Assembly (NCBI GenBank): GCA_963814585.1
Contig: CAWFDF010000011.1
Span: 1-64,000 of the forward strand
DNA: 64,000 bases
Direction of reading: 5' to 3'
Source: an uncultured delta proteobacterium
Lineage (GTDB): Bacteria; Myxococcota; Myxococcia; Myxococcales; Anaeromyxobacteraceae
Shown: positions 725-29,160 of the stretch, in pieces
Layout of the letters: each line of letters starts with the position of its first letter
How positions within the stretch are numbered: the stretch's first letter is position 1
Position numbers and translations under genes: made by a program
The notes under the pieces: generated by a model
Seen by the model: only the letters and a program-made list of their open reading frames with translations
Database searches by the model: none
What the model was told of the DNA's origin: nothing

Positions 725-1123
725 ACCTTGTTAATTATTTAATGAATCCATAAAATGTTTATAAATAATTTGTTTAACTTTATTAGTTGGAATAAAAACA
801 AAATGTGAAAATGTGGACATAAAAAAAAAATTGGTCAGCTTTTTCATTTTATGTGTTAATAAAAAAAAATTGAATATGTTATTTTATAGTGTAATTTGCA
901 ATTTTATTTAAATGACATTAAATATTATTCGACTAAGAAAATTATATTGCACTTAAAATAAACCTTATCTATTAATTAATGTTTTTTAATCTTAAAGAAT
1001 GTTATTTCTTTAATTATAGAATTACAAATTGATTGAAGTTAATATTATTTTACTGAACTTTGGTGATTATTTTAGTTTGTTGATTTATTAGAGTAAATCA
1101 GGTTTTACACCCAAAATTTAGAT

Positions 1124-12200: not shown

Positions 12201-12670
12201 CGAACGCGCCCGGCGGGGTCAGCCGGCCCGTCCAGGCCAGCGACGTGGCGGCGGCCAGCGCGACCAGCACCACGATGCCGACGGCCACCCGCTTGTCGTC
12301 CTCGGGGTGGGCGAACGCCCGCGATCCACACCGGCCGCGGCACGCTGCCCGGCAGCGGGATGCGGCCGAGCAGATGCGCCAGCCCGAGCACCAGCGGCAT
12401 CCGGATCAGCGGTTCGAGCTTGTGCACGTTGCGCAGCGGGGTGCCGTCGGCGTCGAGGAACGTCTGCACCTGATGCGCGATCGGCGAACCGAGGCCGCCG
12501 GAGTAGCCGAGCCGCCAGCAGCACGACGCCGATCAGCAGCATCGTGATCAGCCGGCCGCGGGCGGGCATCGACCGCAACGCCAGGCCGGCCAGGCCGGCC
12601 GCCGCCACCAGCGTGGTCGCCAGCACCGCCACCGACCCGGTGACCAGCGACGCGCCCGCGGTGGCGTTCG
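9228..12670 (-). CDS. aftD: Arabinofuranosyltransferase AftD (Rv0236c), 5'-truncated at junction; many frameshifts
   Basis: FLDADGTPLRNVHKLEPLIR, IPQYWHDAADWL, QVWGNSHDEPLQ, YVVVRNDLDP, F5/8-type AVGQWLQVDF and PESVNPGW/VNGWQQGW motifs. Confidence 0.88.
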
Positions 12671-12849
12671 TTGAAAACAAAAATACGGGGGAATTCCTTG
12701 CAATTCGCAACGGTCAAATCTATTACCCAAGTCAGCAAACAGAAATTAATAAACTGAAGGAACTCCAAACCTCTATGAACGGAAAACGTCGAGTGGTCCA
12801 TATCACGATCATTGGTGAGGACTTCAATGAATCTGGAGATAAGGAATGA
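12671..12849 (+). CDS. Hypothetical protein, C-terminal fragment
   Basis: Open frame ENKNTGEFLAIRNG...GDKE ending in TGA that overlaps the next ATG (ATGA). Confidence 0.5.
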
Positions 12850-13079
12850 GAAAGTTTTTCCTGGTTCGTAACAAAGATGTATCCGGTTGTTCAGGTACCG
12901 GAGTCGTTGCAGAGGGAGTTGTTTTTTCAGACGGGCAGGCCATCTTGAAATGGCTTCGTGAGCCATATTCGCTTGGGATTTACCAATCCATTAAACACCT
13001 GCTTAATGTGCATGGGCACGAAGGTAATACCAAAGTTCAATTTATCGATAGCCCGGTTCGTGTATCGAACCGGCGTTAG
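12846..13079 (+). CDS. Small conserved phage/MGE-type hypothetical protein (DVSGxSGTGxVAEG...HGH)
   Basis: 77 aa; FxLxRxxDVSGCSGTGVVAEGVVFSDG...W...HGHEGNT pattern that I recall from phage hypothetical proteins. Confidence 0.65.
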   Translation: MRKFFLVRNKDVSGCSGTGVVAEGVVFSDGQAILKWLREPYSLGIYQSIKHLLNVHGHEGNTKVQFIDSPVRVSNRR

Positions 13080-13103
13080 TTAGATCTCACAAAGGAGGAT
13101 CAC

Positions 13104-13868
13104 ATGGCAGCAAAAGTCATCACAATTAGCAATCAGAAAGGTGGCGTTGGAAAAACGACCACAGCCGTCAGCCTGGCGCACTACCTGGCCCGCAAAGGTA
13201 ACAAAGTACTTCTCATTGATCTCGATCCGCAGGGACAGTGCGCAACGAATTTGGGTTTGAAACAGGAACAGGGAGCTTTTTATCTACTTGTCATCGCCCA
13301 GGTTTCCCCCAGAGATGTCAATTTTATTCGTGATGTGCAACGTGAATCTGGGCGGGAAAACTTGAGTATCATCCCAGGCGACCAAATGACTGGTTCTGCC
13401 CAAACCACAATCATGGAAAAGCCAATCTCCCATATTCGGGAAACATTACGGGCTTTCCAAAATAGTGTAGATTATGTCATTTTCGACACATCACCTTCAT
13501 TAGGCGGTTTGCAGGAACGGGCTATTTGGGCTGCGGATTCTGTGGTTATCCCTTGTGCAACGGAGTTTGCCTCGCTGGAATCAGCAGCGAACACCATCAA
13601 AACCATGCAAGGCCTCAGGACGGAGAAAGGGTGGAAAGGTGGTCTTTTGGGAATCCTCCCCACTTTTTTCGATGATAAAACCCGTGAATCCCGTAATTCC
13701 ATGAAAGATCTGCACAACCAATTTGGTGACAAAGTGATGCCGCCAATCCATGCAGCCACAGTTCTCAGAGAGTGTTGGTCAACTGGACAAACCATTTTTG
13801 AATATGCTCCCGATTCGAGAGCAGCTCAAGAATACGAAGTATTTGCCGGGCTGGTCAGGAAATATTAG
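13104..13868 (+). CDS. parA: ParA/Soj family partition ATPase
   Basis: Deviant Walker A NQKGGVGKTTT, LIDLDPQG, DYVIFDTSPSLG; AAGGAGG RBS. Confidence 0.93.
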   Translation: MAAKVITISNQKGGVGKTTTAVSLAHYLARKGNKVLLIDLDPQGQCATNLGLKQEQGAFYLLVIAQVSPRDVNFIRDVQRESGRENLSIIPGDQMTGSAQTTIMEKPISHIRETLRAFQNSVDYVIFDTSPSLGGLQERAIWAADSVVIPCATEFASLESAANTIKTMQGLRTEKGWKGGLLGILPTFFDDKTRESRNSMKDLHNQFGDKVMPPIHAATVLRECWSTGQTIFEYAPDSRAAQEYEVFAGLVRKY

Positions 13869-13876
13869 GGGGCATT

Positions 13877-14543
13877 ATGCGTAGAGATGCTTTCTCTCGT
13901 TTGCGAGGTTCTGATGCAGATGAGAATGATTCTATTCAATCATCCAGTCAATCTGCCTTCTCGGTGGACCATCTTCCCCAACCAAAAAGCCCATTGGATT
14001 TTATTCCTTCTGCTGTCCCGACAAAGAAGCGCGACCGGAAATGGGAGAGATCCCACCAGGATGAAGTGGCCACTTATCGCGGGATCATTCCAGAGGCTCG
14101 CCAGGCGTTAGTTTCCCTCGCTGAAATGATAGAAGTTCCGGTGGATGATGTGGCCCGGGCATTTCTTGAATTTGGTGTTTCAAATTATGGGACTGGTGAA
14201 ATAAAGCTAACTCCTTATCCCAAAGCTCAGCGCATGACTTTATTCCCTCAAGAACCAAGGGAGAATGTTGAGACAAAAAAAAGGTGGCTGCAAGAGAGTT
14301 TTTCCTGTTGCTAAAAAGACTGGGAAAAAGCAGAAAAAATCAGAAAGTAAAGCTTGGGAATTTCGTGTGACATATCGTCTTCCCCGCGCCGTGAAAGATG
14401 ACATCAAACAGATAGCCGACCGGCATTATGTTCCTGTCGGGGAATTGGTACTTTACTTTTTTCGCTATAGCCTGGACGCTTACCAGTCGGGTAAATTGAT
14501 CCTTACTCCACATCCCAAGAACACAGGAAATACCCTTTTTTAG
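13877..14543 (+). CDS. Putative ParA partner with two ribbon-helix-helix-like modules (apparent frameshift near 14295)
   Basis: Two similar modules: VATYRGI..EARQALVSLAEMIEVPVDDVARAFLEFG...G.IKLTPYP...TLF and VTYRLP..VKDDIKQIADRHYVPVGELVLYFFRYS...GKLILTPHP...TLF. Confidence 0.6.
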
Positions 14544-14612
14544 ATGCACACAAAATATGGAAATTCATATGTTGGTCAAACTTCGGAAATTAATTATTTG
14601 TGGTTGGCAGTA

Positions 14613-14693
14613 CGTCAGCGGCATTGTAGACGTGCCGCTGACGGTATGTAGACGTTGACGCTGACCTATCCGCTGACGTTGCCGCTGACGTTG
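14613..14693. repeat. Cluster of five CGCTGAC-core repeats (one inverted); candidate centromere/operator
   Basis: Perfect 11-bp inverted repeat CGTCAGCGGCA 14613-14623 / TGCCGCTGACG 14633-14643; CGCTGAC at 14659; tandem CCGCTGACGTTG at 14670 and 14682. Confidence 0.8.
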
Positions 14694-14838
14694 AGCTTCA
14701 CAGAAAGCCCGTAGACAGGTTTATTGAGACAAAGATGAGCAATACACCCCTTAACCGTGAGAGAGTTCCTGAACGCCAATTTTTTGCTTTTTCAATTCGC
14801 ATTTTCTGCACAAATCGGGCCAGGCGAAGTGAGGCAAT

Positions 14839-16971
14839 ATGACAATACCCGAATCTCAAAAATGGTCATCTGAACAGATTTGGGGATATGTCTTGTCGAC
14901 GCTTCAGCTGGATATGTCCAAGGCGAATTTTGATACATGGGTAAAATCCGCTGAGGTCATGTCCTTTGATGGCGAAACCTTCGTTGTTGGGTGTTATAAC
15001 GACTACGGGCGGGAATGGTTGGAAAGTCGGTTAAAGGCAACCATCCAACGAATGATCACCGGAGCAATCAATCGTCCGGTGGTGGTTGAATTTAAATTGT
15101 TCAATCAAGATTATCCACAAATAGTAGAAGCAGACGCAGAAATTGATGATCCAAAAGTGGATCAGGCGAGCGACGCTGAATGCGCTGAACTCGAACCGGT
15201 GTTTGCCTCATTACGCGATGCTCTGATCGAACCGGATCGTGTTGTCAAACTGCCTACCTATTTTTTGCGCTGGCTCCCATATGTTGGTGCCAAGACAATT
15301 TTTGAACTCATGGGTCTCTGGCAGGAATTTTACCTCAACAGCAAAGGCAAACAACCCAGAGCTGGAGAGAAAGTTTCAACACGCATCGAAAGAATTGGAA
15401 TTTGGTCAGGCGTCAGCCGGGCGCAGCTTTTTAGAGACCTGGAAGTAGATCAACCATTATCGTGGTTCATCAAAAAAATTGAGACTGATTATGAGATGGA
15501 TCGAAAGACCGGGCGGGCGAAAAAATCCTCCAACAAGTATGCTTTGTATGGCGTCCCCTTGACCCCGGGTGATGCTGAAGATCTGAGTACCTTTCTTCTT
15601 CAAAATGGAATACGGGAAAATCCTCATCAGGCTCTTCGGATAGCGTTACAGGTTCAACCTGGTGAAATTCTTCAATACCCATATCGCCAACCATCCGAAA
15701 GTTTTAAAATATTGGTTCCCCATCGCAAAACGATCCAGGATGTAATATCCGTTTTGATTGGTCGCCGATTGGATGAGGAGCTATCAGATCTGGTTGATCA
15801 ATTGGCAGATCGCCTTTTGGGAACGGGTGACTTCATCCTTGTCCGGTGGTATTTCCTGAAACACTGGCTTCCAATTCTTGGCCATAACCCGGCGATGTTA
15901 GTCATCCTATTACGCAATCTGTGTTACTTCAACGATGAGACAGGGGAAATTCGGGATGAAGTTTGGATTGAAAAAGGTTATGAAGAAATCGCCGCACGGC
16001 TTGGAATAGATAATCATCGTCAAGTATGGTCAATGGTTTCCAGCAGTGTTCGGACGTGGCGCACCCTCTGAAGCTCATACAGAAAATACAGATCGAGAAA
16101 ACGAAAGGAGGCAGCGGATTAAAGATTCTCTGGCTGCCTTTCTGGAACGAACAGATTATCGTTCGACTGGTCAATCTGGGTATGCCTGGTTTTTCCGAGT
16201 ACAGCGAATGGACACCCTCATCCCCGAACATGAAATGGTGAAACATGCCGCAGCTCATCTTTTTGCTCAGGCTGAAGATCAACAGGTTTTGATAGATTTG
16301 TATTCATTTTTGGAATGGTTGCCGAATGATTGTTTTGAGACTCTCAAAAAAGATCCAATGCTTGTTTTGAGACTGTCAAAAATTGACAATGATTGTATTG
16401 AGACTCTCGAAACCCTATTCAATGATTGTTTTGAGATGGTCAAACCCTTACCGAATGCTTGTTTTGAGACTCTTTTAAAGATTCTTAAAGCCTTTAAAGA
16501 TTCCCAAAAAGATAAAAGATACCTCCACCAACCAAGATTCATTTGGTTTTCGTCGATCATTGCCAAAAGAAGGGGCGGATGGGCGGTATATTTTTCAGGA
16601 ATGGAATTTAAAGTCATTTATTGGCAAATATTAATCCACAAGAATCGTGATGTTCTTCTCAAGCAAGAGGAAAATTCTATTCCCTTTCTGTCCTGGATTC
16701 TCTACGGTATTGCCACATCCGCCATCCAGAATCCTGTTAGCCTGGCAATCTCTAAACTTAAAACATCACCCAAACAAAGCGCTGGGGGAGTTTTCGAGCG
16801 AGTAGCAAGAATACCTGCGGACCAATTTATTAAAAATCTGTAGAAAGAGAAATGTCCTATTGGGGTCCATCAGACACCGATTGGCGGACTATATTCCGCT
16901 CGGTCGACCAAGAGCGGAAACAATTGTTAATCGATATTCTTGGAATTTCATTTCATCAAGCTGGAGAGTGA
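14839..16971 (+). CDS. Candidate replication initiator: N-terminal DnaA domain I plus two winged-helix-like modules, no AAA+ (frameshifts near 16030 and 16840)
   Basis: WGYVLSTLQLDMSKANFDTWVK...YGREWLESRL (DnaA_N pattern); repeated YFLRWLPYVG / YFLKHWLPILG modules each followed by HTH-like helices; internal iteron array; neighbours parA and ssb. Confidence 0.7.
16325..16474 (+). repeat. Five 21-bp direct repeats (iterons), consensus AATG(A/C)TTGTTTTGAGACTCTC
   Basis: Copies start at 16325, 16357, 16388, 16421 and 16454 (periods 32, 31, 33, 33 bp); followed by an AT-rich tract with TTAAAG at 16475, 16485 and 16494. Confidence 0.88.
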
Positions 16972-17071
16972 GTAATGATCTCAAACGAAACTTAGTGCAT
17001 GGGCTGTGGCTCAATTATCAAACGAGCCGTATTGAAAAATCATCACATTCAATTTGGGAAAGGAACCGATT

Positions 17072-17530
17072 ATGCCAATTGGAAATATGACCTGGAATCG
17101 CGGAGATATTACCGGCGATATTTATTACGATTTGATCCGTAAGGATGGAAAACCTGACTTGCCGGTTGTCCGGCTGATCCTGATGATCAATGGCCTGGGA
17201 GAGGTAAAACCTGTCTATGGTTTGAGAATCATTGCTTATGGTGCATTAGCAGAGCTGGCTTATGGCCATCTGCAGAAAGGTAGCCGTATTGGGGTCGAAG
17301 GGCACATCCAGATCCGCGAACGAGAAGATGTTGGCTCGTTCGCTTTTGAAGTGGTGGCTAACCACATTGAATTTATTCGCAAGATTGATTACGAAAAAGG
17401 GAGCCAGGTCATCGCTTCTCTTCGCAACCGAAACATGGCGCAGCCAGTTCCTGGAAAAGAATGGGAAGCAATACAGGAAGTCACCAGCGCTTCGATGCAA
17501 GGCGTCCGAAAACCGGTATGGGTGGAATGA
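17072..17530 (+). CDS. ssb: Single-stranded DNA-binding protein (OB fold), lacking the acidic C-terminal tip
   Basis: IIAYGALAELAYGHLQKGSRIGVEGHIQ...FEVVANHIEFI; AAGGA RBS before ATG 17072. Confidence 0.75.
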   Translation: MPIGNMTWNRGDITGDIYYDLIRKDGKPDLPVVRLILMINGLGEVKPVYGLRIIAYGALAELAYGHLQKGSRIGVEGHIQIREREDVGSFAFEVVANHIEFIRKIDYEKGSQVIASLRNRNMAQPVPGKEWEAIQEVTSASMQGVRKPVWVE

Positions 17531-17534
17531 GCTG

Positions 17535-18065
17535 ATGGAAGAAAAAGGTGATTTTACGATTTCTGAAACCCGATTGCAGCAAATCGGTATCATCTCGTTG
17601 GTTCTGATGATCTTATTTACTTCCATCGGCTATTTTGTTTCTCCGCGTGATGAAAATGACCAACCAGTATTATTGCTTCCTGAGGTAAAAGCCTTTGATG
17701 ACTACCGGATGAAAACTCAGGATTGGTTGATCCAGATAAACACCCTGGATGGAGAGATTGCAAGCATTTTATCAGGAACCAGTCACGGAGACTTGTTTTC
17801 TCAGTCCCACCAGACCCAACAAATGCTTCAGCATGCAGTCGAACTGACAAAAGATATTGATCAGGTGAAAGTACCAGCAGCTGCTTCGGGTATCCATGAA
17901 CAGATGTATTCAACTTCCATGGCTTATCTTGAAGTGGCGCGGATGGTGATGCGCTGGGTCGGTGCGCCTGAACAGGCAACAAAAGACCAAATCGATTTAA
18001 AACTCACACAAGTTCGTCAAAATAAATCAGCCCTGGAGAAAAGCCAATGGATCAATCGTCCTTAA
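17535..18065 (+). CDS. Hypothetical membrane-anchored helical protein
   Basis: N-terminal TM IGIISLVLMILFTSIGYFV followed by amphipathic helices; tightly packed in the operon. Confidence 0.65.
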   Translation: MEEKGDFTISETRLQQIGIISLVLMILFTSIGYFVSPRDENDQPVLLLPEVKAFDDYRMKTQDWLIQINTLDGEIASILSGTSHGDLFSQSHQTQQMLQHAVELTKDIDQVKVPAAASGIHEQMYSTSMAYLEVARMVMRWVGAPEQATKDQIDLKLTQVRQNKSALEKSQWINRP

Positions 18066-19369
18066 CCGATGTTCAGCGCCAACAGGCAGATGCCCTTGCG
18101 AATGCTTATCAGGGTGATATGGACAAAGAAAGCACCCTTCACCGTCAAGATATCAGTCATGCCTATTCGGTGGCTCACAATGCACTCATTTCCCTGATGC
18201 AACTTCTAAACCAGGATGAGGTAGAGAGATTGCAGAAATCAGGCAAATCAATCTACGCAATGGATGACCGTGAAGCTCAAAAATTGATCACCGAATGGAT
18301 AAAAAAGATGCGCGAAAAAGCAATCAATGGCGCATCCACGGCGGATAGAGTTGAGGCTATGGTTTCCCAAATCAAAGCATTAGAAAAGGAAAGGGATCGA
18401 TTACAGAAGGAATCTATCCAACAAAAAGCCATGATAGTAGACCTAAAACAAACTGTTCATGGGTTGAGGGCGCAGGTGGCGACCCTGGAACAGACTTTGG
18501 GTAAGGTGAAGGATAAAGAGAAAGATCGCACTCCCCAACAAGCGGTTGTAGTTCAAAACGTGCCGCCAATGAATCAAGGGATGGCCGAACCGGAGTGGAT
18601 GGCTGATTGGAGAGGAAAAAACACATTCGAACGTGATTCGGAGATATTGCGTATCATAGGTGAAACCGGTTTTTCTAGGCGGCCAGTCATCATCCAAATG
18701 GCAGCGAAAAAATTGGGGAAAAATCCCAATAACACTTCACTGGTCGATGCACTCAATCGCATTGGCGGTGAAGAAAGTGAAAAAGGGCTGCATTTCATCG
18801 AAAAAGTGGAAGGCTTTGAAAAACAGGGTTTCGATCTCGGAGGGGCATTACCGATTATCCTACGATTAACTGAGAGGGGCAGACATGCCTATTGGATGTT
18901 GACAGGTATAAATGCCCGAGAGTGCGAATTTGATGAATTAATCAAACATCATAAGTCACCAGAGCATACCCTTTTAAATTTAATGGTTCGAGATCAACTG
19001 GTCAATATCGGTGGTTATGAAATATTACTCAACTCACCTGGCCTTACACTACCAGATGGAGAAAAATTCGTTCCAGATATTGTCGCTCTGGACACGGCTA
19101 AAGCAGAAGTGCTCTATATTGAGGTGGAGCGCAATGCTGGGAAGGATGAAGCGTACCGCATTCAAAAATGGAGAAATTTTTATTCCGCTACTCATGGGAA
19201 GATATACATTTACTGCGACCGTAGCTCTTTTATGAAAAACAAGTTGATCGGCGAAGTCAACCAGGCTTTGAAAGATTATCATTATTCCTCTTATTTCAGT
19301 AATTACGAAGATGTGTTTAAAGGAATTCGTGGACCGGATGGCGGTATCTGGATCCAAAAGAGAGATTAA
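18047..19369 (+). CDS. Coiled-coil + wHTH + PD-(D/E)XK nuclease; Replic_Relax/MOB_C-like relaxase candidate
   Basis: Heptad region around aa 100-160; LRLTERG wing; HKSPEHTLL; PD-x14-EVER-x3-K matches the D-x(6-17)-E-x-E motif of MOB_C relaxases. Confidence 0.62.
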   Translation: MDQSSLTDVQRQQADALANAYQGDMDKESTLHRQDISHAYSVAHNALISLMQLLNQDEVERLQKSGKSIYAMDDREAQKLITEWIKKMREKAINGASTADRVEAMVSQIKALEKERDRLQKESIQQKAMIVDLKQTVHGLRAQVATLEQTLGKVKDKEKDRTPQQAVVVQNVPPMNQGMAEPEWMADWRGKNTFERDSEILRIIGETGFSRRPVIIQMAAKKLGKNPNNTSLVDALNRIGGEESEKGLHFIEKVEGFEKQGFDLGGALPIILRLTERGRHAYWMLTGINARECEFDELIKHHKSPEHTLLNLMVRDQLVNIGGYEILLNSPGLTLPDGEKFVPDIVALDTAKAEVLYIEVERNAGKDEAYRIQKWRNFYSATHGKIYIYCDRSSFMKNKLIGEVNQALKDYHYSSYFSNYEDVFKGIRGPDGGIWIQKRD

Positions 19370-19386
19370 TTTTATTGCTTGCAACC

Positions 19387-19500
19387 CCTATAGGTATTTT
19401 TGAAATCGAAAAAACCTAACCGAAAATACCAGGTTAATTCGGCGAAAATACCCGGTGGAGTCTATAGTAAGAAAATACGACTATAGAAATCGAAAATAAC
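19387..19500. repeat. Direct and inverted repeat cluster; candidate oriT or operator
   Basis: GAAAATA at 19422, 19444, 19471, 19492; palindrome CCTATAGG 19387-19394; GGTATTTT 19393 / AAAATACC 19423; TCTATAGT 19461 / ACTATAGA 19480. Confidence 0.55.
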
Positions 19501-19529
19501 TACGGAAAGAAATCATACAAGGAGGACAG

Positions 19530-19805
19530 ATGGGGGAAACTTTAATTCGGGTTGAACCTGCAAAACATATGTACCGTTGGTATGCAGTGGGCATCCAAAC
19601 CACTTTGGTGGATGGTATTGCGGTTGTGATTGGTTGGGGTAGTCTAAAGTCATCGCTCCAACAATGGAGAACTCATCAAGTTAATTCTTTGGATGAGGCA
19701 AATATGATTAAGGACAAAATTCTCCTTACAAAATTTAAAAAAGGTTATGTTGGCGTAGTTAGACCTGTAAATTACCATGCTTCCCGCAATAGAAATTATG
19801 GATAA
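19530..19805 (+). CDS. Stand-alone WGR-domain protein (WGS variant)
   Basis: RVEPAKHMYRWYAVGIQTTL...IGWGSL...KFKKGY pattern; AAGGAGG RBS. Confidence 0.7.
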   Translation: MGETLIRVEPAKHMYRWYAVGIQTTLVDGIAVVIGWGSLKSSLQQWRTHQVNSLDEANMIKDKILLTKFKKGYVGVVRPVNYHASRNRNYG

Positions 19806-19837
19806 AAAGCCAGTTTTTAGTTACAGATCTGATCAAT

Positions 19838-20492
19838 TCATCCTAAGCTTTTAACAAGCAGGTCAACTCCGGTAGAAGGATTGGGGAAATCTTCCCAGTA
19901 TCCCTCATGCAGAGAGCGAAGTGATTCGGCGTTATCGATTGCCTGCCCGGTTTGTTCTTGTACAAGGCGGTAAACCGCCATAGATTTAGAGTAATTCGGA
20001 ATATGATGGGCAAGACTATGTATTACTTCTACCGCGTTGGTGAATGCTCTGCCGGTGCGTTCAAAATGTAATAACAGCCAATATTCAAAAGCCGGATTGG
20101 ACAAAGCCAGTTGAAAATTGCGTTTTCCTGGCAAATGCCAGGGCTTGTTCCAGGGAGTGGTGAGTACCAACCTGTTCAATATCAAATACACACCAGGCTT
20201 CGTCATTTGTTGGATCCCAATCCAGTTTTTGCCTTTCAGCTTCCATGTATTGGACCAGGTAGATAGGAGTAACTAAATTTTCTCCTCCTGGGATAATCAG
20301 AACACGGATATTTTTGCGTCGCAAAGCGCTCCGAAGTGCATTGAAATAATTCGGCTCGGTTTGTTTTCCTTCACATACAATCAGGATGGTTTTTTTAGGG
20401 GTCAGCAGGTTCCCACGACGCTGATAGTTTTCTCGATTTTTACCACGGTCGAACAGTGGATCTCGGCCTGATGGTTTCTTCTTACGGCTCAT
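19838..20492 (-). CDS. rloB: RloB-family (TOPRIM-like) protein; apparent frameshift near 20130
   Basis: ILIVCEGKQTEPNYF, WCVFDIE and SNPAFEYWLLLHF motifs; C-terminal NPSTGVDLLV. Confidence 0.85.
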
Positions 20493-21714
20493 GAGTACCT
20501 TCTCCTGCAAAAAGTGAGAAGACATCGCCAAGGAATGGGATGGCACCATACCGACCTTGCAAGTAACCTTTGGCTAGTGATTCGCCCTTCCGTGGACTGT
20601 AATCCAAAAGCGAATACAGGTGAGTTGCACCGTTCTGGTCTTTCTCTGTAAACCAGATTTGATCTCGTCGAAAGAGAGCGTTATCGAGTAAGGTCGTGTC
20701 GTGTGTATTGAAAATCAATTGAGCGTTTTTTTTATTGACTGCCGGGTTGTGAAACATTTCTACAATTGCACGAACCAGAAGTGGGTGCATACTGGCATCC
20801 ATCTCATCAACAATTAAGATATCACCTTTCTCGAGCGCCGTTAAAACCAATTGGCTGAGGTAGAGAATATGCCGGGTACCGTTAGATTCAGAGGATAATG
20901 GGAACGCCACGACTGTTTTATCCTGAGCTTGATGTAACACTTCAATTCTTTCGCCAACCATTTGTAGTTTATTATCTGGCAGAGCCGGGTCTTTCATCCG
21001 GTAATCCCAGATGCCCAGGTCTGCATAACGTAACAAATCACGAATACCCTCATGGTGGCTTTCATCCAGGGTATCGATAAAGAGGTTGGTAGTCAGGAGT
21101 GGGTTTAGCTCAAGCAAAACACCTGAGAACCACTGGTAGACTGCAGAAAGTATCGGGTGTTTGAAGGTGGCTGCTACAGAAAGGAAAAGCGCATTGTCAC
21201 GGGTCAGCGTACTGATTTTTTCGTTTTGACCTTTGAGTGATGGGCCAAAGTAATACTCTTCCTTCTGGGTGTCTTTGTTCCAGGCGCGCTGGAAATATGG
21301 CACTGTTCTGCCTTTGGGTGAAGCATACAAATATTCAGTCCAAACCCGTTTGCGATCTACCGATAGACCATATTGATAACGGATACCATCCTGGATAAAC
21401 GTGATTTCAAAAGTAGAGGGTGCATTTGCACTGGTTGGGTCCAGGAGGAATGGCTGAGCATCGATGAGGTCATCCGGTTTTCGATTAGCTGATTCGCGAA
21501 CAAAATCTCGTAAAAATTTTAGAGCTTCCAATATCTTTGTTTTGCCTGAAGCGTTGGGGCCATAAATCACCACACTACGCAGCAATTTCATTTTGGCCGA
21601 AGCAGGGGTTGCGATGATATTGTCAGAAAGGGTTTGATCTGAACTGGCATTCAGACTTAATACCTGTTCATCTTTGAAACAGCGGTAATTTTGCATTCGA
21701 AATTCGACTAACAT
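20482..21714 (-). CDS. AAA_21/ABC-type ATPase (RloA/AbiLi-like)
   Basis: IYGPNASGKT, ESNGT signature, IVDEMDASMHP, QLIFNTHD, FRRDQIWFTEKD and YLQGRYGAIP; overlaps rloB start. Confidence 0.88.
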   Translation of the reverse strand: MLVEFRMQNYRCFKDEQVLSLNASSDQTLSDNIIATPASAKMKLLRSVVIYGPNASGKTKILEALKFLRDFVRESANRKPDDLIDAQPFLLDPTSANAPSTFEITFIQDGIRYQYGLSVDRKRVWTEYLYASPKGRTVPYFQRAWNKDTQKEEYYFGPSLKGQNEKISTLTRDNALFLSVAATFKHPILSAVYQWFSGVLLELNPLLTTNLFIDTLDESHHEGIRDLLRYADLGIWDYRMKDPALPDNKLQMVGERIEVLHQAQDKTVVAFPLSSESNGTRHILYLSQLVLTALEKGDILIVDEMDASMHPLLVRAIVEMFHNPAVNKKNAQLIFNTHDTTLLDNALFRRDQIWFTEKDQNGATHLYSLLDYSPRKGESLAKGYLQGRYGAIPFLGDVFSLFAGEGTHEP

Positions 21715-21741
21715 CGCGTATACCTCCTTGACTATACTACA

Positions 21742-21770
21742 ATATTACAATAAAACTGCAAAAAAGTCAA
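21742..21770 (-). promoter_or_regulatory. Sigma70-like promoter of the RloA/RloB pair
   Basis: TTGACT-N17-TAATAT on the minus strand, upstream of the AAGGAGGT RBS. Confidence 0.5.
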
Positions 21771-21855
21771 ATAGATAAGAGGTCAGTGTCGATTAAATAT
21801 TTATTGTCGGAATTTAAAATGGTGACTGACGTGCAAACAAATATCCGTAAATCTA

Positions 21856-22511
21856 TCATCTATGGTTAGAGGCATCATAGTTCTTTATAATTGCTTGATC
21901 GTCTGATTCGTAGTCGGCAAATTGTCCTAAAATGTAAGTATTAAATCCATTGTTTGTCAGATGATGAATTTGGATTTTTCCGCCAATGTATACCCTCTCA
22001 TTTTTAGGGAGAGTATTCTGTATTGCCCTTTGCTCGTCCATCATTTTAATAATATCCTTAGGAAATTCAAACCCTTCAGGAATTTGGCACACTGGCTTAA
22101 CCCCCACACCATATTGTAGAGATTCTGATTTGAAGCTCTTTGTGGACCTGTAAGCGTATGAATGAATTGTTCCGTCTTCTTCGGAAAAACCAAAATGGTA
22201 GACTGTGGTCGTGATATTCTCCTCAATTGAGAATTCTTTTTTGTAATCACTCCATATATTATTAAGAATACTGGGAGTATGATAATTTAAGTTGTCTATA
22301 CCTCGAACAATCATCTTATCGGTTAATTGCGATAAACCATCTACCGAGAACCCCGCCCATTCCAGTGCCACAAATAAGCATTCGTAGGTGAGGAACGATA
22401 AAATGTCGGCTTTGTCAGTGAACATAAACGGTTCACCATTTGTTGTTGTCGCAAGTGTATCTGTCGCGACAAATACCTGATCTTTATTGGTATAAAAATT
22501 AGTGATGACAT
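21856..22511 (-). CDS. Proteasome-beta-like Ntn-hydrolase candidate (true start 22511; frameshifts near 22495, 22405 and 22322)
   Basis: Reconstructed N-terminus MSSLIFYTNKDQVFVATDTLATTTNGEPFMFTDKA..IVPHLRMLICGTG gives Ser1/Asp17/Lys33 after Met removal; C-terminal YIGGKIQIHHLTNNG. Confidence 0.55.
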
Positions 22512-22664
22512 AATTTTCTATGAATACCTTTTGGGGTGAAATGCGATAACAATTGTTCGTAAGAAGATAGCCAACTGGATGAGGGGGGCATCCAAATGGC
22601 TATGTGATTAGTATACTATTGACGGTTCTTTTTCGACAAGAATTATAAAAGATAAGTTCTACAT

Positions 22665-23086
22665 TCAGATTATGTGTTTATAATCTACTAAAAACTCTTG
22701 TGGAAGTAGCACTTTGATCGCGGAATTGCCCATAAAAGCGAAGTGTTTCAAATTTCCAGTAATAAGAACCTCAGCATGGCTGCAAATTGCGATCTCTGCA
22801 AATGGTAAATCCCCTGGGTCGTTTATAAGATCTTGTTGGAATTCCACCGGTTGACTTTGAACCCACAAGGCTGAATAAGCAATAAACCTGAGAGTCGCAT
22901 CAGATTCGAGTCGGAAAAGAACATTAACCGCGGCCGATGAAGCACTTGAGTATATTCCTCAAAAATTCGTTCATCGAGCGCTAATCGGATTTTGCTGTCT
23001 AAAACGGCATTCAGGATGATGGCCGGATTGCTATTGCGCTTAAGCAGTGAAGAAACGAGTACGTTTGTATCGAGAACGATCAGCAT
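22665..23086 (-). CDS. PIN-domain toxin (putative type II TA); apparent frameshift near 22900
   Basis: IVLDTNVLVS, EEY..VL.RP, DPGDLPF and LITGNLKHF motifs. Confidence 0.85.
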
Positions 23087-23087
23087 A

Positions 23088-23506
23088 TTAAGATTGTTTC
23101 CTCGTTTCCCGAATTTCTGCTTCGATGTCTTCCTCCGTCAATTCAACAGAAGAAACCGAATCCTCGGCAGAGCGAATTGCTTCAACCGCAGCTTGTGCCT
23201 TCAACTGTAGCGATTGAAAAAGCATAATCCGTTCTTCGGGAAGCAAGTTAAATTCCTGGTCAGAACATCGGCACTCACGTTTTGAGAACGAGCAATCACA
23301 TCCACAATTTGAATTCCCCTGGCTTGCAAAGATTTGCCTAGTGTAGTTAATAGATCGTCGGCTGCCAGATCTAGTGTTTTAATCACCACACCATTTTCTG
23401 TACTGACAAAGGTAACCAAATCACCTTTTTTCAAATCAGCTGTCGGCGAATCGTTCAGGGGTATGGTTACCTGACCCTTTTCTTGAACTCGAACTGTGCT
23501 AATCAT
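23088..23506 (-). CDS. AbrB/MazE/SpoVT-family antitoxin (frameshifted)
   Basis: VRVQEKGQVTIP...LKKGDLVTF; C-terminal LTEEDIEAEIRETRKQS; stop lies 1 nt before the PIN start; GGAGGT RBS. Confidence 0.8.
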
Positions 23507-23520
23507 TTGAACCTCCAAAA

Positions 23521-23548
23521 GTCATACCGTCATACTTTTATTATAACA
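23521..23548 (-). promoter_or_regulatory. Extended -10 promoter and direct-repeat operator of the TA operon
   Basis: TGtTATAAT at 23548-23540 (minus); GTCATAC twice at 23521 and 23529. Confidence 0.5.
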
Positions 23549-23582
23549 CTGTTTTTGAGTGGATTAAATTTGTTGTTCATGC

Positions 23583-24044
23583 TTATTTGCCTGCGACTAG
23601 TACCGGCCTCATATTACAAGCAGGATGATGTTTAGCCAGCATGGTCCAAGATAATCTCTCAATTACATTCCACCAGATTCCCGGTATCTCATGCCATTTT
23701 GCGCCGGCAACATTCTTTGGGATATCCGGATCCGGGGCAGTCACATGAGCAAGAAAACCTTTTGGATTCACGGCCACATCAACATAGACCACTGAATAGA
23801 TTGGGCCAATTAAACCTAAGGACAAGAACATACCCCATCCACATCGAGAAGGCTGAATAGTTTTGGCTGCATCAATCCGATCAGCCATGAATTCCCAGTA
23901 GGTCAAACCCTGTGGGGCCCCGCTAACCTGCATCGGTTGATTGCCCTTGTACGCAACAAAGAGAAATGAAGCGATCAGGGTTATGGTCACCAGGGTGCCA
24001 ATCGTTTTACCGATAAGTCCAAAGAACATGCTTATCAATTTCAT
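23583..24044 (-). CDS. Hypothetical membrane protein
   Basis: ATG 24044 after AGGAG; two hydrophobic segments; 153 aa. Confidence 0.65.
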   Translation of the reverse strand: MKLISMFFGLIGKTIGTLVTITLIASFLFVAYKGNQPMQVSGAPQGLTYWEFMADRIDAAKTIQPSRCGWGMFLSLGLIGPIYSVVYVDVAVNPKGFLAHVTAPDPDIPKNVAGAKWHEIPGIWWNVIERLSWTMLAKHHPACNMRPVLVAGK

Positions 24045-24051
24045 TTTTCTC

Positions 24052-24273
24052 CTATTCTGTGCGGTCGATTTTGTATTGATCTTGAGGATCAATATTTTCG
24101 CGAACGGCTCGATTAAATCGAATTTCTTCTCGGTACATTCGATCCAGAGCGACTTCGAGTACATCGCTCTCGCTTCTTCCCATATATAGCGCCATCTCTT
24201 TTAATTGGCCTATGCCTGCTACGCTTAAACGGAATGATTTAACTGGTTTTCCTGGAGAATTTGTTCTTGGCAT
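24052..24273 (-). CDS. Ribbon-helix-helix (CopG-like) regulator
   Basis: KSFRLS..GIGQLKEMALYMGRSESDVLEVALDRMY; AAGGAGG RBS; divergent from the putative transfer operon. Confidence 0.72.
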   Translation of the reverse strand: MPRTNSPGKPVKSFRLSVAGIGQLKEMALYMGRSESDVLEVALDRMYREEIRFNRAVRENIDPQDQYKIDRTE

Positions 24274-24444
24274 TTTTGCCTCCTTATAGCGTATAGTAAT
24301 ACTAGAGTATACATAAGTCAATAGGCAATTTCTATTTTAAGCCAGAAGTAACCTTGGAAATCTAAATTAAATTGCTTTGACATTTTGATAATCAATCCAT
24401 ACCGCAGGTTCTAATCTAATATTCGGATTATTATAAACTGCAAC

Positions 24445-24477
24445 TTGGCAAAACGTAAACACAATGCTATAATAGCA
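24445..24477 (+). promoter_or_regulatory. Near-consensus sigma70 promoter of the putative transfer operon with a palindrome over the -10 box
   Basis: TTGGCA (24445)-N17-TATAAT (24468) with TG extension; TGCTAT-A-ATAGCA palindrome 24465-24477. Confidence 0.7.
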
Positions 24478-24541
24478 CTATTATTACCGTGATGTAATTA
24501 CCTGGTCGCAACCATCGGCAGCTAATTTCTTTTTGATCCCT

Positions 24542-24600
24542 AAAGCGACCACTTGTGAGACTTGTTTTTTGTAGTCTTGCAGGTGGTCGCTTTTATTTTG
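24542..24600 (+). terminator. Intrinsic terminator inside the 5' leader (attenuator candidate)
   Basis: 21-bp stem 24542-24562 / 24573-24593 whose three non-Watson-Crick positions are all G-U on the + strand; followed by a U-rich tract; lies between the promoter and the GGAGGTG RBS. Confidence 0.75.
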
Positions 24601-24628
24601 TTAATTTCAACCCTTACGGAGGTGTATC

Positions 24629-25172
24629 TTGCGTGATGTCCATCTATCTCGAAAAAACCTGGTTATGCTGGCCAGCATCGTTCTGGTGGTTGTACTTGGA
24701 ATCCTGACGGTCAACTTTCTGGGAACCAATGGTTCCACAGCAACACCGACCCCTTCACCTGATGATACGAAGGCTTCGGATGCAGTCATTGCCGGTGTGG
24801 AGGCGTTCTACAACATCAATTATCAGGAAGGGAAGGATACCATGGCTTAATCGCTTCTGCGCAGTCAGTAGCAACAGTGGGTGCCAATTCCTGAAAACCG
24901 GTTCTACCGCCTTGTGGAAACGATTTGAAGACATGCAGACCATTACCCAGGGCAAAGCAATGCCTCAGGAGAAAGTGCGTTCGACTGCAGATGAACAGGT
25001 TTGGCGAGTCTCGATCACATTAACCCAGCCACTGCCAGGCAGTGAAAAAACCAGCGATGAAGCGTATGCCCTGGTCGTGCGAGAGAAGGATGTTTGGAAG
25101 TTCGATCGTTTCCTGATGGATAAAGAAATCAAGGGTCTAAAAAGTGGAACGAAACAGGGACAAACAAAATGA
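24629..25172 (+). CDS. Membrane-anchored exported protein, possibly NTF2-like (VirB8/TcpC-like); frameshift near 24843
   Basis: TTG start after GGAGGTG; single TM, PTPSP linker, then helices followed by strands ending ALVVREKDVWKFDRF. Confidence 0.45.
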
Positions 25173-26443
25173 GTAAGACCCCAAGGTCATTTTTTTCTTT
25201 TTTACTCGTTGTAATACTTCTCTCCGCCATCACCCCCAACGTGGCTATGGCCCAAGGCCAGGATCCCTGGGGAGAAGTGTTTGACTCCAACGGCAACCTG
25301 GTTCCCGGGATGATCGACCTGGGTGTGACGACGGAAAACCCATCCTGGATGAATGTCGAACTGCCCTTCAATCAATCCTTGAGCCTGGAAGCCAACTACC
25401 ACCGGTTTCAAACGGAAAGCGGCAATATCGTCGTTTTGCCTTCGGCATCGACTTTATTCTTCATGGCGATGAATCCACAGGAAAGCGGTCTTGCCAATTC
25501 GGTGGGAATGGTCGGAAATGGATATGGCGGCATTATTACTTTCCTGGGGGCAGTTGCCGGCGACAGCATTGATTGGAAGCGTCTGCAACAATCCCATCCG
25601 GAATATCAGCAACCGGCGGATTTTTGGAACGCGGTCATCAATGGACAGGAAAATGTGTGGACCTGGTTTTCCGGTTTTGGTTTTATCACCAACTTACTCT
25701 CGATGTCCTGGAATGATGCCGCTCTTCGTTCTGCTTACTTGATGTACCTGAATGGCGCGAAAGATTGTGCGTCGATCCCCGGAGGCTGTTCCGGTGTGGC
25801 TACCCCACCGCCTCCGCCCAGACTATGCCCGGATACTTCAATCACCGTTCAACAGCCGACAGCAACCATTCAGAAGATTGCTCCCAATAATCCATTGGTG
25901 GTCGGGCAGGATACCCAGGATCGTCGCGGCGCGGATGTGCAGGTTTCCATTACGGTCCCGCCGGTGATCTTTACCTGGTATGAACCGATTTACGAAGAAC
26001 AGGAAGTTTGTACGACACCGTTAAACGGTGGAACACCTACCTGTACGACCGAATCGGTCTTTAAGGAATGCAGACAGCATGTCGAGCACCTGCCGGATGC
26101 GGTGGCTTCTGTTCAGGCGACGGCATCTCTCAGTGGTGACAGCAAAGCCTGGATACAGAGCAAATTGGGGCAAACCCATTATGGCGCTTATATTCATCAG
26201 GAAAGCTTTACCCTGATCCCCGGTTACGGAAATTGGTCGGGTGGATGTGATGGCGGTGGAACCTGCCGGGCGACTGGCACTGCTTTGCGAGTTCCCTTTG
26301 CGGATCCCGGCACCTTTGAACTGCGCATGCGTGGTATGACAAGAGGAACCAGCTTTATGGGGATGCCGATCACCCAGCCGCGCACCCTCAGTGCGGATGG
26401 AACATTACAGGTGTATGTCACCCTGCCGGCTCTGGTGCCTTAA
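25169..26443 (+). CDS. Secreted Cys-containing protein of unknown function
   Basis: Signal peptide (..NVAMA-Q); poly-Pro linker; paired Cys; beta-rich C-terminal half. Confidence 0.7.
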   Translation: MSKTPRSFFSFLLVVILLSAITPNVAMAQGQDPWGEVFDSNGNLVPGMIDLGVTTENPSWMNVELPFNQSLSLEANYHRFQTESGNIVVLPSASTLFFMAMNPQESGLANSVGMVGNGYGGIITFLGAVAGDSIDWKRLQQSHPEYQQPADFWNAVINGQENVWTWFSGFGFITNLLSMSWNDAALRSAYLMYLNGAKDCASIPGGCSGVATPPPPPRLCPDTSITVQQPTATIQKIAPNNPLVVGQDTQDRRGADVQVSITVPPVIFTWYEPIYEEQEVCTTPLNGGTPTCTTESVFKECRQHVEHLPDAVASVQATASLSGDSKAWIQSKLGQTHYGAYIHQESFTLIPGYGNWSGGCDGGGTCRATGTALRVPFADPGTFELRMRGMTRGTSFMGMPITQPRTLSADGTLQVYVTLPALVP

Positions 26444-26560
26444 ATGATCCACTTGATTCTCAGTATCCTTGCCGCTGCTGGTCTGCTCTTGCTCTTGGGA
26501 ATTCTGGGCTTTGGTGCGCTCCTCATCCTGTGTACATCCGGTGAACCGGATGAAGAATAA
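26444..26560 (+). CDS. 38-aa hydrophobic peptide (below the ORF-track cutoff)
   Basis: ATG immediately after the upstream TAA; MIHLILSILAAAGLLLLLGILGFGALLILCTSGEPDEE; fills the gap exactly. Confidence 0.5.
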   Translation: MIHLILSILAAAGLLLLLGILGFGALLILCTSGEPDEE

Positions 26561-26572
26561 ATTACGAATGTT

Positions 26573-27256
26573 ATGAACGATATTTTTGTCCTCTTTGGCG
26601 ATTTCATGGCAGCTCTGCCGACCTATCTGCTCAATGGTCTGTTGGTCAGCGTGTACGGGTTGATTGACATTGCGCCGGCGCTATTGAGCATCGGATGCGC
26701 GGCTCTGATCGCCTTTCTGATCGACCAAAATATCCAAAATCGCGCCATGTTTCGACCCGGGCGTGGGGGTAGGGAGATCGCCTCTCCCGACCCTCACACC
26801 GCCCAGGTGATGACCATTACCGTATTGGTGATTTGGGTTTTATGCCAATGGGGAATGGGCGCTCCGGTGCCCTGGATTGGGGCGGCGATGTGGCTTTTTG
26901 GGGCAATCGCTTTGCTGGTCGTTCACACCCAGGAACCGACCATCCTCTGGAATGTGAAATCCGGGATCGCGATTTATGCTCTGGCCGTGATTGGCAGCCG
27001 CCTTTACCTGGCCTATACAGCCCAACTATCGGCAGAACAATGGGCAGCCTTGATCGGTTCGGCGGAGAGTGCAGCCTCGGTTATTTCCAATACGCGCGGC
27101 AATGTCACCACGATCATCCTTTGGGCTTTATGGCTGGTTATTCCTCTTGGTTATTTTGCGATGCTGCTTCAGCAGATTTTTCTCAACCCGATGTCTCTTG
27201 TCAACCCGATGGCGAGTATGCAAGAACTCTTACAGCGGTATCGGGTACGGCGATAG
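26573..27256 (+). CDS. Polytopic membrane protein (putative transfer-apparatus component)
   Basis: 227 aa with about six hydrophobic segments. Confidence 0.7.
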   Translation: MNDIFVLFGDFMAALPTYLLNGLLVSVYGLIDIAPALLSIGCAALIAFLIDQNIQNRAMFRPGRGGREIASPDPHTAQVMTITVLVIWVLCQWGMGAPVPWIGAAMWLFGAIALLVVHTQEPTILWNVKSGIAIYALAVIGSRLYLAYTAQLSAEQWAALIGSAESAASVISNTRGNVTTIILWALWLVIPLGYFAMLLQQIFLNPMSLVNPMASMQELLQRYRVRR

Positions 27257-27390
27257 GGCAGTAAATGGAAACGATTCGACTGGATACAGTGGTCTCGTTG
27301 GATTTACTACTCTATTCCATTGTGGATGAGTGGCTAATTATTTCTCAACGTAGGCTGGTCAATCTTATCTTGAACGTCAGGAGGTCAATT

Positions 27391-27681
27391 ATGAAGGAAA
27401 TTGTGGAAGGGTTACGTGGTCCGGCTTTGGGTGTGGTCTTTGTGATCATTGCTCTGGCCGGAACCATCGTCGTTGCTGCTTTTGCGGCTCTGGTAGCTCA
27501 GATGAGTTTGCTGCTGCGGTTGCGGCCCCGGGAAACCAATCCCAACACGCAAACGAACAACGGTTATCGGGTTGCCGAATCTCGCCAATCCTCACCTTCT
27601 ACGCTTTATCGCTCTCCCAAGGATTCGGTTTCCGAGCAGACAAGCGCAGATGTGATCGACGGAATTTGGTGGCAGGTGTAG
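27391..27681 (+). CDS. Small membrane protein
   Basis: AGGAGG RBS before ATG 27391; long hydrophobic stretch followed by a polar tail. Confidence 0.6.
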   Translation: MKEIVEGLRGPALGVVFVIIALAGTIVVAAFAALVAQMSLLLRLRPRETNPNTQTNNGYRVAESRQSSPSTLYRSPKDSVSEQTSADVIDGIWWQV

Positions 27682-27788
27682 TAAAACGATACGTTCATCC
27701 TGAACACAGGGCATCTCTTGCGCACGCAAGGGGTGTCTCGCGAGCTCACCAGGCCTGTCTGGCGATCTGACGAGACATCTGGAGATAT

Positions 27789-29160
27789 ATGGCAAATATT
27801 CTGAACAATATCTCTCACAAAATTCCATGGATCCGGTCATCCCAACCGCTGACCATTCCGGATGATTTACGCATCCAGCAGGCCGGGATTCAATTCGATC
27901 CAGACCGGCATGAGCTGGACTACATCTGGCTCAATATGGTCGAACAGGAAGCCGGGCAAATCTACAGTGGTTATCGGGTGATTCGCCTTTTGCAATTCAA
28001 GTACATTCCGATGGATGTTCGACGTGATGCCGGGTTGTTGCAGAAGATGCGCACGGCGCTGCGCGGTGTTTATGGCGCCGGGGTCAACCTGGTCTACCTG
28101 GCAGCCGGCATCTTTGACCCGGCGATTGGGATTGTGCAGTGTTATGGGGTGACTTCCTTTGCTGAGACACGTGATTTGGCTGCAGAGCGTTCACGACGTG
28201 ACCTGGCAGTGCTGAAATCGACCCTGGCCGGAGCATACCGCCAGACCCGCCTGGAACCCTTGACGGTTGAGATCGCGGAATGGATTGTCAAGGCGTTCCA
28301 GACCATGTCATTCCCGATCGTTACCGTCGGGCATCCGGACCCTCGTGAAAATGCCCGTGGAGGGGATGCAAAACTGAATGATCCCCTGGCCGGATCCACT
28401 CAAATGCAGCAATTCTCCCTCCAGCAGAACGAACTGCTCTTTCGCGGGATGAGCAGCCTGCGGGAAGAATTTCTGCTCATGCTATTGGCCAATCATGTCC
28501 GCCTGGAAGATATCGCCACGATGCTGGCAGCCCAGGCGGAAAATACATCGGTCTATGCTTCTCGCCAGATGGGCGTGCGAGCCGCATCGTTTGGCGTTAG
28601 CCTACCTGCGATCCTGACCGGCGGCTTGTCCGAGAATGCCTCCAATTCGTATGGCACCAATCATTCGACCGGTCTGGCCGAAGGTCAGGGATCTACCGAT
28701 GGCGTAGCTGACACAACCGGCCAGGCACATACGACTGGGCATGCCAGCACGCGCGGCTGGTCGCATACAGTCGGCGTAGCAGAGACAATGGTACCGGACA
28801 GGCCAATACCGTTGGGTTCGCGGAAACGAATGGGGTTGCCCAGACGCATGGCGTAACCGTAACCGATGGCACTTCCCATACCGACTCGTCCAGTTCGGGC
28901 ACGACCCATTCAGATAGTTCCGGTTACGGCGTCAATGGTGGGCTTGGCGGCAGTATTGCGCCGGCAGGCGTAGGGCTCAGCGGAAACGTGGGTGGAAATG
29001 CCAATTGGGGCAGTTCAGATGGCGTTACCAGTAGCGCCGGATCGGCGGATACGACGTCGCATTCCGTGTCGGTCAGCGACTGCAACCAGCACAAGTCATG
29101 CGACTACAAATAGTCAGGCGCAAACCAATTCCGCCAGCCATTCGATCACTCAGTCGGAAC
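27789..29160 (+). CDS. Large protein with a Ser/Thr/Gly-rich periodic region (3'-truncated; frameshifts near 28787 and 29070)
   Basis: Globular N-terminal ~280 aa, then hexad repeats ([30 protein letters not shown] ... [24 protein letters not shown]). Confidence 0.65.

Follow-up and report, generated by a model that had tools for sequence, protein, structure and literature searches.

Does a gene broken over several reading frames, lying between an Abi-like pair and a toxin-antitoxin module, encode a proteasome-like Ntn hydrolase, and does such an enzyme serve in defence? The question arose from an original prediction for a 64,000-nucleotide stretch of contig CAWFDF010000011.1 (assembly GCA_963814585.1, hereafter called the window), which proposed a solo protease or transpeptidase, possibly a new defence effector, with Ser, Asp and Lys at positions 1, 17 and 33. 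The features considered are listed below, with the conservation of individual residues among relatives.

21856..22511, minus strand: proteasome-beta-like Ntn hydrolase gene, about 216 residues, whose reading frame is broken by likely read errors, namely indels at 22493, 22403-22416 and 22321
22506..22508, minus strand: Ser1 codon; once Met is removed, Ser1 is the predicted N-terminal nucleophile; relatives have Ser in 359 and Thr in 37 of 399
22459..22461, minus strand: Asp17 codon; Asp in 414 of 414 relatives
22410..22412, minus strand: Lys33 codon as relatives read; Lys in 418 of 420
22361..22369, minus strand: G46-T47-G48 motif; Gly48, likely the equivalent of Gly47 (oxyanion hole), in 422 of 422
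22093..22098, minus strand: family-specific Lys136-Pro137, in 410 and 421 of 422; it ends a strand that, judged by strand order, carries Gly-Ser129-Gly in the proteasome
21979..21987, minus strand: I173-G174-G175 motif preceding the last two strands, in 401, 421 and 419 of 422
21773..22575, no strand: swappable cargo slot; related contigs retain both flanks with different DNA inside
22560..22610, no strand: hairpin at the upstream edge of the slot, 22-bp arms, common to contigs with different cargo
20482..21714, minus strand: AbiLi / RloA-like AAA_21 ATPase, downstream neighbour (Pfam AAA_21 4.8e-40; PADLOC AbiLi 1.3e-100)
19838..20549, minus strand: AbiLii / RloB, split by an indel near 20123
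22665..23518, minus strand: PIN toxin and AbrB/MazE-like gene, upstream; PIN split by indels near 22907-22923

Reading frames of the window gene

The minus-strand reading begins with M-S-S-L-I-F at an ATG at 22511. It passes into a second frame, from 22497, with A-T-D-T-L-A; a third contains I-V-P-H-L-R and G-T-G, and the last has I-G-G-K and reaches a stop at 21856; these pieces were located where the original prediction had placed them. The listed open reading frame, from 22425, is a late start with a garbled middle. A search with this frame gave 146 candidates, 128 of them relatives, nearly all of 210-220 residues and opening M-S-S-L-I-F. The best relative, P0001, is intact at 216 residues and aligned across the broken stretch with 86% identity over 213 columns, the out-of-frame part of the window included.

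The window was compared with near-identical public contigs. One additional base was found in the homopolymer at 22493 in X2/X4, X3 and X6; X2 and X4 look like a single data set filed twice, while X3 and X6 carry the base independently, with 0-1 substitutions. Relative to the window, the X2 contig (21478-22646), the sole one covering the whole gene, gains one base at 22493 and is short of five at 22403-22416 and of one at 22321. The repair first proposed, a single extra T, agrees with these contigs at the homopolymer; the gene has three break points rather than one or two. A lysine does occupy position 33 as claimed, but the F-T-D-K-A first read around it was garbled (relatives have F-T-T-K-A), and its codon, 22412-22410, lies one base from the one originally given.

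Similar indels were observed in the adjoining AbiLii, PIN and WGR genes against every covering contig, and frameshifts occur throughout the 16-kb segment that holds them. Since near-identical contigs lack the indels and neighbouring genes are similarly affected, read error is the likely cause of the breaks in the window gene. Decay of the window copy into a pseudogene of a real family would account for the three breaks, broken copies do exist elsewhere (G677, L020 and L029), and the closest public run, which shares only 0.38 of the window's words, is not the window's own sample; given the few substitutions, the affected neighbours and a segment ridden with frameshifts from end to end, this reading is highly improbable.

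The arrangement Ser/Thr1-Asp/Glu17-Lys33 occurred by chance after 14 of 48,557 open ATG starts in the window's genome (G000) and after 0 of 228 in the low-GC segment, where the broken window gene itself is uncountable. Contigs of RNA run X20 cover abiL and not the proteasome-like gene, and such contigs cannot show absent expression. Promoter-like sites near the gene were at chance level (9 against 6.6 +/- 2.7), and a site at 22639-22610 consequently carries no weight.

The low-GC segment and its cargo slot

The gene sits in a 16-kb stretch of GC 0.44 within an assembly of GC 0.73. Along the contig, GC is 0.33 at 1-3000, 0.44 in a conjugative-type element at about 12650-28900, and 0.73 in the host DNA beyond. 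Genes of the segment include ParA, a DnaA_N-bearing initiator and SSB. To its left lies an actinobacterial aftD fragment cut at 12674, and a profile search found the first 255 profile positions of aftD nowhere in the genome. The shift in GC and the truncated aftD indicate that the contig is probably chimeric and that G000 is probably not the true host of the segment, so that a host cannot safely be assigned to genes in the first 29 kb. Among close relatives of the gene, several come from Anaerolineae and others from Acidobacteria; in 401 genomes of the Anaerolineae-type class, the window DNA gave short matches only, in four genomes.

The flanks were as originally described, with AbiLi and AbiLii downstream and the PIN and AbrB/MazE-like pair upstream, the antitoxin match falling below the Pfam cut-off. 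A small WGR-domain gene (19530-19805), which has indels relative to its relatives, faces the AbiL pair. The boundaries of the cargo slot are drawn from contig X5, with 1514 other bases between 21777 and 22575, from X1, with a joint 21773-22567, and from loose contig ends at 21773 (X6) and 22575 (X4). These neighbours give the window gene a cargo setting and are not its partners.

At the upstream edge, the hairpin may mark a hotspot where these elements recombine or take up insertions. Contig breaks around it fall at 22568-22575 and 22598-22603, and X2/X4 have a 1331-bp insertion at 22646-22660. The hairpin was also considered as an attC site and rejected, being too short and having contigs that diverge at different points; a home-made fold test detected no attC-like site after the window's own copy.

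Conservation and annotation of the family

A profile of 94 relatives recovered 1057 representatives at 50% identity (E <= 0.001), 295 of them at E <= 1e-30. Intact relatives are about 215 residues long. Conservation was measured in an alignment of 422 distinct proteins of 190-260 residues, drawn from 467, near-identical sequences included. The start residue is directly followed by Ser or Thr in 375 of the 422; position 1 after Met was another residue in three of the 399 proteins counted, and Arg170 is present in 380 of 420. Among 125 diverse rows with a mean identity of 31%, position 1 is Ser (93) or Thr (32) and nothing else. At least five switches between Ser and Thr were counted at this position, and 15 on a quick tree, a pattern that selection for the hydroxyl would predict. 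The alignment thus bears out the predicted conservation of Ser/Thr1, Asp17, Lys33 and a Gly47 equivalent in homologues.

No family in Pfam, NCBIfam or PADLOC fits these relatives. None of the 94 members matched PF00227 at E up to 1, and PADLOC 2.0 (2023 library) gave two stray single-member matches among the same 94, at E 0.004 and 0.02. Two profiles searched against solved-structure sequences returned nothing below E 0.35. A weak search for longer forms fused to a sensor or effector domain, in which 7993 candidates were scored, gave 0 matches.

All 94 members scanned matched PHROG 13702 ('terminase large subunit'), with a best E of 2.9e-62. PHROG 13702 is the same family, and it was 'terminase' that was rejected: in Lactobacillus prophage Lj928 the 219-residue gene comes ahead of the small-terminase gene and of a distinct large-terminase gene of 1269 bp, and an Ntn fold is predicted. 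The Lj928 gene, Ljo_1441 (L063 5001-5657), is labelled terminase large subunit in GenBank, yet it is a member of the Ntn family.

Predicted structure

Two relatives were modelled with AlphaFold, P0001 (pLDDT 96.6) and P0121 (pLDDT 97.1), and the models were compared with 48,161 chains. The best match was to proteasome beta (Z 17.3, rmsd 2.6, 171 residues aligned; Z 17.3-17.5 across both models), followed by Anbu (Z 15.7, rmsd 3.0, 175 aligned), HslV (Z 12.7, rmsd 3.0, 156 aligned), BPH (Z 11.6, rmsd 3.8, 165 aligned) and connectase (Z 8.5, rmsd 3.2, 127 aligned; Z 8.2-8.5 across both models). A second comparison repeated this ranking, Foldseek agreed on the fold (best E 5.6e-9), and an Atlas model of P0032 had a TM of 0.66 to proteasome beta clusters. 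Small-molecule Ntn amidases were also among the structural matches, at Z 7-9. In the alignments with HslV, Anbu, BPH and connectase, residue 1 of each enzyme pairs with model residue 2, the first residue aligned. An hhalign comparison of the profile with four HslV sequences and one BPH-like sequence gave a probability of 0.7%, and the alignment failed. Based upon the models, the family is predicted to fold like one proteasome beta subunit with a four-layer Ntn core, as originally proposed; neither a non-Ntn fold nor a lack of conservation at Ser/Thr1, Asp17 and Lys33 turned up.

Helices H3 and H4 form the main contacts between the two beta rings, and H1-H4 are found in all homologues except connectase and PPH/RPC, according to the available portion of PMC8665760. 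In both models H1 and H2 are present (53-64 and 70-92). Neither has a helix between the strand at 133-137 and the helix at 152-163, so that H3 is missing from both. The strand bearing Lys136-Pro137 is followed in both by a 14-residue loop, a single helix and then the Gly-Gly motif, with a further helix at the C-terminus.

In the proteasome, Thr1-Lys33-Asp17 acts together with a Ser129/Asp166 proton shuttle, and Ser1 is reactive and less efficient (Huber et al., PMC4792962, in its available part). At the strand-order sites of Ser129, Asp166 and Ser169 the models have Lys136-Pro137, Arg170 and Ile173. Going by strand order only, Lys136-Pro137 and Arg170 would occupy the places of the proton shuttle, and the conserved Ser120 could substitute in the second triad. 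Models that lack H3 and have these residues at the presumed place of the Ser129/Asp166 shuttle make a barrel protease unlikely.

Relation to known proteasome-like families

The family is proteasome-like in the broad sense and belongs neither to HslV/20S nor to connectase. With 20S proteasome beta subunits and HslV (PF00227) it shares the fold, the N-terminal nucleophile, Asp17, Lys33, the oxyanion glycine, and the late Gly-Gly with two strands. Identity to them is only 6-16%, however, the second triad Ser129/Asp166/Ser169 is apparently replaced, and the likely oxyanion glycine is Gly48, one residue later than proteasome Gly47. Proteasomes are strictly Thr1, as stated in the part of PMC4792962 consulted, whereas this family is mostly Ser1. 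No alpha subunit, HslU or other AAA+ unfoldase was a neighbour in 59 loci. Anbu (PDB 5LOY) and BPH (PDB 5OVS) are likewise bacterial beta-like subunits without a known unfoldase, but both retain H3/H4 and build large assemblies (PMC8665760, consulted in part); they are 6-10% identical to the present family, which is sporadic mobile cargo.

Connectase (DUF2121) is a ringless, sequence-specific proteasome-beta homologue with Ser1 or Thr1, a monomer that ligates rather than hydrolyses (PMC7980362, partial text), and it offers a model of how the present protein might act. It has lost H1/H2, and two inserted helices cover its active site, whereas the window family has H1/H2 and lacks H3; it is also archaeal, with MtrA as its target (same partial text).

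Novelty of the family, suggested in the original prediction, is doubtful. In 2021, 22 bacterial and archaeal proteasome-like subfamilies with Thr1 or Ser1 were named, their function not known (Fuchs, Alva and Lupas, PMC8665760), and Ser1 is known from connectase, as far as the accessible parts of that paper and of PMC7980362 go. Judged on size, taxonomy and the Firmicute link, the gene probably belongs to one of these subfamilies, with GPH the first candidate. As described in the available text of PMC8665760, GPH, DAH and FC5 are divergent prokaryotic beta-like proteins with Thr1/Ser1, Asp17, Lys33, Gly47 and no propeptide. GPH is gammaproteobacterial there, with 159 sequences at 90% identity, in keeping with the abundance of Vibrio, Shewanella, Providencia, Aeromonas and Pseudomonas among the present relatives. 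In the same text Firmicute clusters led to GPH and DAH, and in the Atlas a neighbouring Bacillota cluster has 12% PF00227. Differences are also apparent: the subfamilies of that text keep H1-H4, whereas the models of the window family lack H3, and DAH has an extra C-terminal domain that is missing from the models. The paper's representatives of these subfamilies (WP_152342571.1, WP_085249540.1 and WP_106036939.1) were not among the accessions listed for 30 clusters (up to 15 members and four accessions each; 708 hits).

Mobility and genomic context

Across 30 GTDB and 29 viral loci, no conserved neighbour was observed save prophage tail genes. The absence of a fixed partner among the loci compared upholds the description of the gene as solo.

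Of 67 distinct non-viral loci, 13 had an attC-like site after the gene, as had one of 13 viral loci, compared with three among 271 gene ends drawn at random; the count excludes partial loci and near-duplicates. This was the same home-made fold test, with the energy cut relaxed midway from -0.15 to -0.14 per base, and 11 of the 67 pass the original cut. In L027, from Halomonas, matching core sites lie on both sides of the cassette, and the attC was confirmed by eye. Relatives, not the window copy, are thus integron-type cassettes in some loci, with a single ORF, an attC and an upstream core site. An Rfam search at the cassette edges of seven loci found nothing.

Pseudomonas-type prophages carry the gene in reverse orientation, in a slot between tail K and the next tail gene, in four of 80 loci (L144-L223) that were fetched by the Pseudomonas tail K protein, some of which end inside the slot. 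The slot is hypervariable, its length lying between 15 bp and 4.3 kb. In other loci it is filled by such genes as those for an AbiU2 HEPN protein, a protein of superinfection immunity, nucleases resembling NucS and HsdR, and a TIR-like protein; six of 109 such occupants matched PADLOC at E 1e-4. More than 100 protein clusters were found in this slot, most without a Pfam or PADLOC match, and together they form a reservoir of candidate genes for defence or exclusion. Seven further prophage loci have the gene after the tape-measure gene, and in Lj928 it adjoins a gene annotated SieB.

Matches in plasmids came to 141 records, most of them near-identical copies carried by large conjugative plasmids of enterobacteria; IncHI2 and IncX7 plasmids are among the carriers, and the one looked at closely is IncHI2. 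On plasmid pK29 (L061 8001-8636) the gene adjoins a site-specific integrase module, and CTX-M-3 lies about 6 kb away in this record, with no resistance link implied. Only five of 50,697 phage records matched, all from two temperate Lactobacillus phages and none with a Pseudomonas member. The gene is rare: it was found in two of 400 and none of 400 genomes in samples of two gammaproteobacterial orders, centre genomes excluded.

Association with defence genes

Proteins within three ORFs of the gene were collected as neighbours, 143 from 30 GTDB loci and 126 from 34 further loci (three duplicates and loci below 3.3 kb dropped). As controls, 30 regions picked arbitrarily in the GTDB host genomes supplied 139 proteins, after removal of 15 from three regions; three host genomes gave no usable control region, the metagenome loci had no matched control, and counts were made by hand. 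With PADLOC at E 1e-10, matches were seen for 24 of 269 neighbour proteins and eight of 139 controls (p 0.18), or 18 of 64 loci and seven of 30 (p 0.41). When half-profile coverage was added, the counts were 18 of 269 and three of 139 for proteins (p 0.036), and 14 of 64 and three of 30 for loci (p 0.13). With E 1e-30 in addition, they were 14 of 269 and one of 139 (p 0.015), and 12 of 64 and one of 30 (p 0.037). The stricter filters were picked after seeing the data, and the predicted enrichment of homologues in defence islands therefore held under these post hoc filters and was not significant in the raw counts.

Clear defence neighbours were DISARM (L025), retron I-C with a type IV restriction enzyme (L018), PD-T4-2 (L085), a type III methyltransferase (L117) and HEC-05 (L132). 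In L018 the gene lies between the type IV restriction enzyme and the retron, and in L025, a Thr1 member, it lies inside the DISARM locus. The link with defence genes is real in kind, modest and filter-dependent. The DISARM locus also contains, reversed and with an HTH-IrrE gene, a 984-residue protein (L025 1564-4515) with a partial Dsr1 match (1.6e-21).

Integron cassettes are reported to include phage-resistance genes, although most cassettes are uncharacterised (PMC12614218; bioRxiv 10.64898/2026.03.17.712381; both available in part). The main text of the integron-screen preprint does not mention proteasome, Ntn or protease, and its supplements could bear on this. In the mostly open-access literature searched for a defence role or description of the gene family, only the Fuchs papers were found.

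Proposed function

The reading preferred here, tentatively and at a little under even confidence, is that the product is a stand-alone, cytoplasmic, propeptide-free, substrate-specific Ntn peptidase outside any barrel, with a protective and likely anti-phage role. Methionine aminopeptidase removes Met ahead of Ser or Thr, and would expose Ser1 here with no propeptide involved. By analogy with proteasome chemistry, Lys33, held by Asp17, would activate the Ser1 hydroxyl, with Gly48 serving as the oxyanion hole. A double-ring chamber for degradation, as in HslV, is not expected, since ring-stacking H3 and a linked ATPase are both missing. [quoted passage not shown] Carriage in swappable slots, as a prophage moron and beside defence genes speaks for this reading; against it stand the raw PADLOC counts, the copies among housekeeping genes, the low share of slot occupants with a PADLOC match, the acetyltransferases, glyoxalases and antirepressors that share slot and integrons, and the weak search that gave no fused form. 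The fuller proposal, in which a proteasome-beta offshoot without the ring-stacking helix and with a rewired proton shuttle became a one-gene antiviral enzyme that cuts or links a phage or host protein via Ser1, is possible and distinctly more doubtful.

Other Ntn hydrolases, for example penicillin acylases and bile-salt hydrolases, act on amides. The product could likewise be an amidase, acting on small molecules or peptides to detoxify or recycle an amide compound, and its gene could spread as niche-adaptive cargo that has nothing to do with phages. Such cargo is at home in the same places, insofar as the prophage slot and integrons also carry GNAT and other acetyltransferases, glyoxalases, antirepressors and DinB-like genes; many copies of the gene lie among metabolic genes, several copies sit in housekeeping surroundings (L005, L012, L021 and L026), and the raw defence enrichment is not significant. 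Amidases do appear among the structural matches, but proteasome-family chains score far higher (Z 12-17), the Asp17/Lys33 pair is a proteasome-type active site in the part of PMC4792962 consulted, and no conserved metabolic neighbour was found. Reversed prophage morons and placement in DISARM would also fit conflict genes better, and the amidase reading is unlikely, while remaining the strongest competitor.

Less probable again is service to the mobile element itself, by a peptidase or ligase that disables a host defence protein, excludes rival elements or acts in the maturation of a protein which the element itself encodes. Carriage on the IncHI2 and IncX7 plasmids, in prophages beside tail or packaging genes, and on the window's conjugative-type element is consistent with such service. 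The near absence of the gene from phage records argues against it, as does its occurrence, reversed, in so few of the related prophage loci, so that it is no required virion factor; an anti-defence gene would moreover bring no gain to attC cassettes or chromosomal singletons. A general self-assembling ring of proteasome, HslV or BPH type, clearing damaged proteins under stress, is very unlikely: the highest structural similarity is to ring-forming beta subunits, and H1 and H2 are present, but both models lack H3, the gene has no linked partner, ATPase or otherwise, and it occurs in 0.5% of the genomes sampled at most.

Implications

The protective peptidase proposed above probably belongs to the subfamilies that Fuchs et al. 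(2021; PMC8665760, in the portion available) described as without suggestive genomic context. The gene family now has one, moving alone via integrons, prophage morons, plasmids and defence islands. Neither the accessible part of that paper nor the literature searched was found to mention a loss of H3, carriage as cassette or moron, or a role in defence. The 'terminase' label of PHROG 13702 looks wrong and is corrected here. If true, the antiviral reading would be the first phage-defence role of the proteasome family in bacteria, as far as the searches could find, and would make the family a source of new sequence-specific proteases or ligases. Connectase, the only characterised monomeric relative, is a useful protein ligase, and the chemistry of the present family is therefore worth knowing even if the defence role fails.
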